The translations under genes and the position numbers were made by a program. The notes beneath the pieces are model-generated. The model saw only the letters and a program-made list of their open reading frames with translations. It was not told where the DNA came from and ran no database searches. 11,678 nucleotides of DNA from a virus, in IMG/VR virus record IMGVR_UViG_3300029258_002616. One strand, given 5' to 3'. Below are positions 739-3,934 of this stretch, piece by piece (the stretch's first letter is position 1; each line of letters starts with the position of its first letter).

Positions 739-813
739 GGCACCGTAGACCAATCAGGCAGAGTCAACGAGCTTAAACCTCGTTAAGTAGCGGTTCGATT
801 CCGCTCGGTGCTA
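739..813 (+). tRNA. tRNA with Leu anticodon TAA, atypical short variable loop
   Basis: Acceptor ggcaccg/cggtgct with one G-U. Positions 8-9 are TA. 3-bp D-stem gac/gtc with a 12-nt loop. Anticodon stem acgag/ctcgt, loop cTTAAac (U33, A37, anticodon UAA). Variable loop only 5 nt (taagt). T-arm agcgg-TTCGATT-ccgct. Discriminator A73. 75 nt. Confidence 0.65.
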
Positions 814-827
814 ATAAAATAAAAAAA

Positions 828-900
828 GGCGCGATGACCTAATTGGCAAAGGTACATGATTCAAACTTATGGTTTATCGGTTCAAATCCGATTCGCGCTA
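828..900 (+). tRNA. tRNA with Leu anticodon CAA, atypical short variable loop
   Basis: Acceptor ggcgcga/tcgcgct with G1-U72. D-stem acct/aggt, loop aattggcaa. Anticodon stem catga/ttatg with one G-U, loop tTCAAac (anticodon CAA). Variable loop 4 nt. T-arm atcgg-TTCAAAT-ccgat. Discriminator A73. 73 nt. Confidence 0.65.
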
Positions 901-3616: not shown

Positions 3617-3838
3617 ATGTGCAATTCAGACAGAAATTGTGAAAAGTGTAGAAATGGATATTATGTAGAATCAATAAAATTTCCTGATGAATTAATTGAA
3701 ATTTTAGGGGAATGGTATGAAAAATATAGGAATCAAGCAATTTTGAGAAGACTTAGACTCATCGTAGCTCAATCGGAAGACCGCGCGATTACGAACCGTG
3801 ATGTTGAGAGTTCAAATCCTTCCGATGGGAATGGATAG
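3617..3838 (+). CDS. hypothetical protein (73 aa) whose 3' third is co-linear with a tRNA-like sequence
   Basis: ATG 7 nt after AAAGGAAC. CEKC motif. The reading frame runs through the entire Arg-like tRNA at 3758-3830. The TAG stop lies in the acceptor stem of tRNA-Ser(GCU). Confidence 0.45.
   Translation: MCNSDRNCEKCRNGYYVESIKFPDELIEILGEWYEKYRNQAILRRLRLIVAQSEDRAITNRDVESSNPSDGNG
3758..3830 (+). tRNA. tRNA-Arg(ACG)-like, possibly degenerate
   Basis: The 73-nt canonical layout works: acceptor ctcatcg/cgatggg with one G-U, TA at positions 8-9, D-loop aatcggaa, anticodon loop tTACGaa (anticodon ACG), T-loop TTCAAAT, discriminator A. But there is one mismatch in each of the D-stem (C·C), anticodon stem (A·C at 31-39) and T-stem (A·C). 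Confidence 0.4.
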
Positions 3839-3916
3839 TTGCTCGAGTGGAAAGAGACCAGTCTGCTACACTGAGGTCGGGTATAGCCCGCATAGGTTCA
3901 AATCCTATACTGTCCG
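3833..3916 (+). tRNA. tRNA-Ser (anticodon GCT), class II
   Basis: Acceptor ggatagt/actgtcc with one U-G. 3-bp D-stem ctc/gag. Anticodon stem cagt/actg, loop cTGCTac (anticodon GCU). Variable arm stem cggg/cccg. T-arm atagg-TTCAAAT-cctat. Discriminator G73, as expected for Ser. 84 nt. Confidence 0.8.
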
Positions 3917-3934
3917 AATAGGAGAAGAAGAAAA

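Follow-up and report, generated by a model that had tools for sequence, protein, structure and literature searches.

Two adjacent tRNA genes in a viral DNA fragment of 11,678 nucleotides (IMG/VR record IMGVR_UViG_3300029258_002616; the whole fragment is called the window hereafter) combine leucine anticodons, UAA and CAA, with the short variable loop of type I tRNAs. They are very probably genuine phage leucine tRNAs of a type I lineage, which would serve the ordinary supply of leucine and be charged by the LeuRS of the host. As such, they are further members of a known and common kind of type I tRNA-Leu.

The initial annotation, made from the sequence alone, had left two readings: minimised Leu tRNAs, or tRNAs charged with another amino acid that recode UUA/UUG. 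It considered that either would be unusual. The first reading is upheld by the anticodons, A73, the core pairs, a Leu-type D-loop motif (in the UAA and CAA tRNAs), and a clean family alignment. The second is contradicted by the TTA and TTG codons of the phage, which align to Leu columns like CTT does. The judgement that both would be unusual does not hold either, since short tRNA-Leu are widespread among Actinomycetota and in the tRNA clusters of phages, and one of them has been leucylated biochemically (PMC6614811). In other words, there is no sense-codon recoding here, and the short shape is normal in the tRNA clusters of many phages.

Structure and setting of the tRNA genes

The window has a GC content of around 31% and all its genes are on one strand. 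ARAGORN identified eight tRNA genes, all on the + strand and clustered with small ORFs. These genes and the largest element discussed below are the following:

180-251, + strand: tRNA-Trp(CCA) (ARAGORN, Rfam)
562-652, + strand: tRNA-Ser(UGA), 91 nt, with a full long variable arm (ARAGORN, Rfam)
739-813, + strand: tRNA-Leu(UAA), type I shape (ARAGORN, Rfam RF00005, identity elements, Leu D-loop motif)
828-900, + strand: tRNA-Leu(CAA), type I shape (ARAGORN, Rfam RF00005, identity elements, Leu D-loop motif)
1639-1717, + strand: tRNA-Leu(UAG), with a 10-nt mini variable arm (ARAGORN, local Rfam search)
1981-2051, + strand: tRNA-Phe(GAA) (ARAGORN, Rfam)
3758-3830, + strand: tRNA-Arg(ACG), the weakest score, 36.6 bits (ARAGORN, Rfam)
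3832-3917, + strand: tRNA-Ser(GCU), 86 nt, with a long variable arm (ARAGORN, Rfam)
4149-6944, + strand: 931-aa ORF with a major vault protein shoulder domain (Pfam PF11978, E = 1.9e-23) and a weak Vault_3 repeat

ARAGORN and the covariance model RF00005 agree with the initial annotation on the two adjacent Leu tRNAs of 75 and 73 nt with variable loops of 4-5 nt, and ARAGORN and Rfam also agree with it on their Leu anticodons, U33/A37, and A73. Its third Leu tRNA, with anticodon UAG and a 10-nt variable region, was recovered by ARAGORN and by a local Rfam search. When refolded with RF00005, the UAA and CAA tRNAs have their anticodons at the same position and no long arm.

The UAA tRNA (75 nt) has a 3-bp D stem with C13.A22, a D loop of sequence AAUCAGGCAG, and the 5-nt variable loop UAAGU. 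The CAA tRNA (73 nt) has a 4-bp D stem and the 4-nt variable loop GUUU. In ARAGORN, the stems of the two are thus 7/3-4/5/5. Their anticodon loops, CUUAAAC (C32-U33-UAA-A37-C38) and UUCAAAC (U32-U33-CAA-A37-C38), are placed identically by ARAGORN and Rfam, and the minimum-free-energy fold of each RNA, taken alone, is the cloverleaf. Both align to RF00005 over the full length of the model, with scores of 53.0 bits for UAA (E = 2.8e-9) and 57.7 bits for CAA (E = 1.4e-10), the gathering score being 29 bits. Two further readings of the anticodons were rejected. An 8-nt loop with a mis-assigned anticodon is incompatible with the 7-nt loop with U33 on which ARAGORN and Rfam agree. A stop-codon suppressor would have the anticodon UUA, CUA, or UCA, and the anticodons found, 5'-UAA-3' and 5'-CAA-3', pair with UUA and UUG.

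With a stem-loop of at least 12 nt as the criterion for type II, the long variable arm is absent from the UAA and CAA tRNAs, and the UAG tRNA, with 10 nt, is borderline. The latter is 79 nt long and its variable region, GCGUAAGCGU, could form a 3-bp stem with a tetraloop; it scored 50 bits in the local Rfam search and was absent from the Rfam run on the whole window. All three Leu tRNAs have G1.U72 and A73, and none encodes CCA. The stretch 739-900 is 100% identical in the three independent metagenome assemblies that cover it (loci L009, L012, and L013). Hence, the sequences of the Leu tRNAs are not an assembly artefact.

The window also encodes a YkuK/RNase H-like protein, a metallophosphoesterase, and a carbamoyltransferase. 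The vault-like ORF matched no PHROG. Its homologues, at around 40% identity, are found on 8 IMG/VR contigs, the longest of which has 359 kb, a size typical of jumbo phages, and the source of the window is therefore probably a large uncultured phage. A megablast of the whole window against INPHARED gave no match, i.e., there is no close genome relative in that database. A scan of positions 1-2100 for promoters and terminators found them at chance level only. Within the cluster, a small ORF (1486-1662, + strand) with two CxxC pairs, resembling a zinc ribbon, overlaps with its 3' end the first 24 nt of tRNA-Leu(UAG). The tRNA-Arg(ACG) is mismatched in its D, anticodon, and T stems and lies one base from tRNA-Ser(GCU).

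Short tRNA-Leu in phages and bacteria

At high similarity, the window tRNAs have few counterparts. An exact 39-mer of the UAA tRNA was not found in IMG/VR, and blastn against INPHARED gave no match for the CAA tRNA and a single one for the UAA tRNA, in Ochrobactrum phage vB_OspM_OC. Distant relatives identified through the vault-like protein (L001-L008) have no tRNAs or a Leu(UAA) of normal length (86 nt). Among the relatives linked through the YkuK protein, L014 carries a Leu(CAA) of 75 nt and a Leu(UAG) of 82 nt with a 10-nt arm, L017 a Leu(UAA) of 77 nt and a Leu(UAG) of 76 nt beside a normal 86-nt Leu(UAA), and L019 a Leu(UAG) of 76 nt.

To cover the family more broadly, we searched with a pattern made up of a UAA anticodon loop, a variable loop of 4-6 nt, a T arm, and a partial D loop. 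In IMG/VR, ARAGORN confirmed at least 116 tRNA-Leu(taa) of 73-79 nt (116 of the 120 matches listed), with 114 distinct sequences and a median locus GC of 40% among the matches listed. In species-representative genomes, there were at least 115 tRNA-Leu(taa) of 73-78 nt (115 of the 120 matches listed). The genome matches listed are mostly lone tRNAs from Actinomycetota, located on chromosomal contigs, and some are from Planctomycetota and others. The Actinomycetota with a type I-shaped tRNA-Leu(UAA) include Nocardioides, Nocardia, Arthrobacter, Microbacterium, and Mycobacterium (loci L145-L264). This range across Actinomycetota and Planctomycetota extends beyond the one Streptomyces case of the literature searched.

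The short shape extends to anticodons for which the pattern did not select. Among the matches listed, the viral loci have 12 short and 4 long tRNA-Leu(CAA), and 13 short and 3 long tRNA-Leu(UAG). At the same pattern-match loci listed, all 41 Ser tRNAs are long, as are 20 of the 24 Tyr tRNAs. For cultured phages, the family consensus has matches in 422 INPHARED records (in 246 of these, they span 80% or more of its length), from phages of Mycobacterium, Erwinia, Escherichia, Salmonella, Streptomyces, Pseudomonas, Bacillus, Enterococcus, and cyanobacteria. Nearly all rows among the matches listed correspond to an annotated tRNA-Leu. Thus, tRNA-Leu with a short variable loop are common both among Actinomycetota and in the tRNA clusters of phages. 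Textbooks and the 2019 Streptomyces paper hold bacterial type I tRNA-Leu to be a rarity, yet hundreds of phage genomes carry such genes. In the searchable literature, we found no paper on the prevalence of type I Leu tRNAs among phages.

Other tRNAs of these loci are also of note. Bacterial tRNA-Tyr are normally type II. Across viral loci 14 of 18 are long, and L017 has two tRNA-Tyr(GUA) with short variable loops, of 70 and 72 nt (9953-10022 and 14295-14366). The same locus harbors 25 tRNAs and a tmRNA (11401-11723) between positions 9700 and 17000, a tRNA-like gene with the 4-base anticodon 'atta' (12204-12275), and a TROVE/Ro60-like ORF (17461-19080). TROVE and vWA_Ro60 domains are also found beside the tRNA array of another relative (L015, 2555-4225). 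Two viral contigs (L033 and L136) have a tRNA(CUA) of amber-suppressor type, which ARAGORN labels 'Pyl', and three (L043, L119, and L121) have a tRNA-Ile(UAU) of 93-94 nt with an insert of 22-24 nt in the variable region.

What advantage the type I shape may bring to phages, escape from a defence being one example, is a matter of speculation. Defences that target tRNAs and phage tRNA countermeasures are established, and the eukaryotic nuclease SLFN11 reportedly prefers type II tRNAs. One could imagine that the shape was selected as a counter-defence, allowing phage tRNAs to evade a toxin or nuclease directed at type II tRNAs or at the tRNA-Leu of the host. This would be an addition to leucine supply, compatible with it, rather than a replacement, and we regard it as unlikely. 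The phage does have its own decoders, unusual in form, for all six leucine codons, and type I Leu tRNAs are over-represented in phage arrays across host groups, including that of E. coli, which has type II only; but no defence gene or nuclease is linked to the loci examined, and the Ser tRNAs of the same phages retain their arms. The shape also occurs in Actinomycetota, on chromosomal contigs, and so does not have to serve against a defence. If it did, the nuclease could be deployed by either the host or the phage, and phage translation would continue while leucine decoding by the host collapses. In hosts like E. coli, the phage tRNAs would then need compensating determinants that have yet to be described.

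Leucine identity and the reading of UUA and UUG

To assess how the type I family evolves, we aligned 46 sequences with less than 80% mutual identity: the two window tRNAs and viral type I Leu tRNAs with five anticodons. The alignment has 75 columns and is almost free of gaps. In the type I cloverleaf 97.5% of the cells are paired, a percentage that is inflated by the use of a structure-based tool to ascertain the set, and in 19 of the 20 pairs both partners vary. Covariation in the alignment scores 0.967, whereas shuffles score 0.22 and controls with slid partners 0.17 at most; U8, A14, A73, and the residues of the T loop do not vary. Even with this ascertainment, the number of compensatory pair types looks like that of a functional tRNA family. 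Compensatory substitutions this pervasive mean that the cloverleaf is under purifying selection.

These results bear on whether the window genes could be decaying or non-translational tRNA-like elements, such as pseudogenes, nuclease decoys, or processing or integration signals, in which the arm was deleted and which are not aminoacylated. We consider this highly unlikely. Aberrant tRNAs do occur in phage clusters, and the window tRNA-Arg(ACG) combines its low score with several mismatches. Furthermore, the CAA tRNA is atypical for the type I family in its 4-nt loop, since none of the around 270 other members collected has one (all have 5-6 nt), and a loop of this length is nearly inactive in the Streptomyces system (PMC6614811). 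Yet the CAA and UAA tRNAs have the best and fourth-best Rfam scores among the window tRNAs, they keep every universal tertiary nucleotide as well as A73, they belong to a family full of compensatory substitutions, and their sequence is identical in independent samples.

The tRNA cores were then compared with what is known of leucine recognition. The LeuRS of E. coli relies on A73, A15-U48, G18G19/A20a, and tertiary pairs that join the D loop to the T loop; it is independent of the anticodon and of the long arm, and arm-less variants remain active (PMC9976931). All three window Leu tRNAs have U8:A14, A15:U48, G18G19, and A73. In a reference set of around 940 ARAGORN tRNAs from the loci fetched for the analysis, A15:U48 and A73 occur together in 87% of type I and 88% of type II Leu tRNAs, whereas no other isotype exceeds 49%. 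The window tRNA-Phe and tRNA-Arg likewise have both, and these elements alone do not discriminate: they are simply consistent with leucine.

More specific is a motif in the 3' half of the D loop: G18-G19-N-A-R-A, then four more nucleotides up to the anticodon stem. In the reference set, it is present in 11 of the 16 type II Leu tRNAs (69%), in 35 of the 41 type I Leu tRNAs that were not picked by the search pattern (85%), and in at most 3% of each other isotype; because the family was collected with ARAGORN and the pattern, its frequency is inflated for the UAA members. Both the UAA and CAA tRNAs of the window have the motif, which is absent from the UAG tRNA (GGCCUAG). The UAA and CAA tRNAs lack G3:U70, the AlaRS element, having C-G at 3:70, and also G73 and the long arm, the SerRS elements. 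Two other classifications were less informative: per-isotype nhmmer profiles, which use the sequence only and were built from 16 heterogeneous type II Leu tRNAs, did not discriminate isotypes, and nearest-neighbour assignment on masked, arm-less cores classified control tRNAs weakly, and Phe wrongly. As for the first pair of the acceptor stem, G1.U72 is found in all Leu tRNAs, short- and long-armed, of this phage and of the YkuK-linked relatives L014, L017, and L019. In the 46-sequence alignment, position 1:72 is G.U in 19 and G-C in 22, and E. coli tRNALeu(UAA) also has G1-U72 (PMC6614811).

The reading of the codons can be assessed from the phage genes themselves. TTA is the commonest leucine codon of the window ORFs (109 of 236), and with TTG (23) it makes up 132 of them. 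Leucine accounts for 7.6% of the codons, which would become 3.3% if TTR were not leucine. From alignments of the carbamoyltransferase (119 homologues) and the YkuK protein (80 homologues), we tallied the residues of the homologues for each codon class. In the carbamoyltransferase, the 22 TTA columns are 46% Leu, followed by Ile, Val, and Phe (the last at 7%), and the CTT columns are 48% Leu. The TTA set includes columns with 100%, 97%, 91%, 90%, and 86% Leu. The TTG columns are 39% Leu overall, and Leu reaches 97% in the one at position 243. Results for the YkuK gene are alike. UUA and UUG are leucine codons in this phage and there is no sign of recoding; that reading is unsupported because TTA and TTG fall on Leu columns as often as CTT.

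It is extremely unlikely that the window tRNAs are charged with another amino acid, for example Phe, and recode or ambiguously decode UUA/UUG: the inserted residues would damage conserved, often near-invariant positions, leucine content would drop by more than half, the AlaRS and SerRS elements are missing, G34, a major determinant of PheRS, is absent from the UAA and CAA tRNAs, and the family also occurs as lone tRNAs on large chromosomal contigs of many Actinomycetota, for which the standard code is assumed. What could be said for it is that a type I shape with a leucine anticodon departs from the textbook bacterial tRNA-Leu, that A35 and A36 are common to the window Leu anticodons and Phe(GAA), which also shares A73, and that some bacterial LeuRS fail to charge type I tRNALeu (PMC6614811).

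We thus favor genuine phage leucine tRNAs engaged in ordinary leucine supply. These would be processed by host enzymes, and CCA would be added after transcription, given that none of the genes encodes it. The host LeuRS would then leucylate them through A73 and the tertiary core (U8:A14, A15:U48, G18G19, and the Leu-type D loop), not through the anticodon or any long arm. UUA and UUG, i.e., 132 of the 236 leucine codons of the window ORFs, would be decoded by the UAA and CAA tRNAs, and CUN by the UAG tRNA, such that the phage would have its own decoder for every leucine codon. The long arm may have been lost only where the synthetase tolerates it, in Leu, and kept where it is the main identity element, in Ser. 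This loss in Leu and retention in Ser matches the known identity rules. From the codon-alignment test, we infer that the window tRNAs accept leucine, within the limits that some bacterial LeuRS do not charge type I tRNALeu and that the CAA loop is shorter than the 5-nt minimum (PMC6614811). Within the family, acceptance has been shown biochemically solely for the member from S. coelicolor.

Comparison with known systems

Among the closest known systems is the type I tRNALeu(CAA) of S. coelicolor, which has the 5-nt variable loop ACAGC and is leucylated by the single LeuRS of that species (Fan et al. 2019, NAR 47:6369, PMC6614811). In this tRNA, 5 nt is the minimum loop length for good activity, and 4 nt left slight activity (PMC6614811). 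The loop ACAGC follows NNAGY, the common pattern in the family that the window UAAGU fits, and U8:A14 is important in the S. coelicolor tRNA and present in the window tRNAs alike. The 4-nt loop of the window CAA tRNA, in contrast, has the length that is nearly inactive there. The S. coelicolor gene coexists with type II Leu tRNAs; it differs from the window genes in being chromosomal and high-GC, in being served by a LeuRS with a special leucine-specific domain, and in that A73 is no determinant. The ability to charge the Streptomyces type I tRNALeu was mapped to this domain, and the LeuRS of E. coli and S. purpurogeneiscleroticus do not charge it (PMC6614811).

Other systems share some of these traits. 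The animal mitochondrial tRNALeu(UUR) is also type I with a UAA anticodon, and is recognised via A73 and A14 without a long arm (PMC9976931). However, it is organellar and floppy, has a dedicated mitochondrial LeuRS, and its common descent with the phage family is unsupported. A short-loop tRNALeu(TAG) was noted descriptively in a tRNA cluster of Mycobacterium (PMC6582537), in a mobile-looking array with HNH endonuclease genes and alongside type II copies of the host; unlike the window genes, it is chromosomally integrated. Canonical type II tRNA-Leu, such as that of E. coli with anticodon UAA, share with the window tRNAs A73, A15:U48, G18G19, the GG-N-A-R-A motif, and the 3-bp D stem, but have a stem-loop variable arm of 13-17 nt that the window UAA and CAA tRNAs lack and of which UAG keeps 10 nt. 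As for tRNAs that reassign sense codons, such as the tRNASer(CAG) of the CUG clade and the yeast mitochondrial tRNAThr(UAG), the window differs in that its codons align with the standard residue.

Cultured phages also have annotated Leu tRNAs of this kind. Ochrobactrum phage vB_OspM_OC has an annotated tRNA-Leu(TAA) of 75 nt plus CCA (78 nt) with the variable loop AAAGU, and its cluster includes a Leu(TAG) with an 11-nt mini-arm and two 91-nt Ser tRNAs. The mini-arm architecture of Leu(UAG) in this phage and in L014 is like that of the window. Cyanophage P-RSM6 has a Leu(UAA) of 74 nt. Escherichia phage wV8 (Felixounavirus; L265, EU877232.1) has two such genes beside a 90-nt Ser tRNA:

28645-28721: tRNA-Leu(UAG), 77 nt including CCA
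29223-29300: tRNA-Leu(CAA), 78 nt including CCA

Together with those of cluster-C-type mycobacteriophages, these Leu tRNAs have bodies of 74-75 nt, 5-nt loops, A73, often G1.U72, and a D arm of the GUAGCCCAAYNGGNAGAGGC type. They sit in tRNA arrays whose Ser tRNAs keep their long arms. Most of them encode CCA, unlike the window genes, and their identity to the window tRNAs is around 70-80%. The case of wV8 presents an apparent conflict, since phages of E. coli carry type I Leu tRNAs although the LeuRS of E. coli is reported to charge only type II. Both the charging of phage type I Leu tRNAs and the preference of phages for them are tractable in cultured phages such as Felix O1 and wV8.
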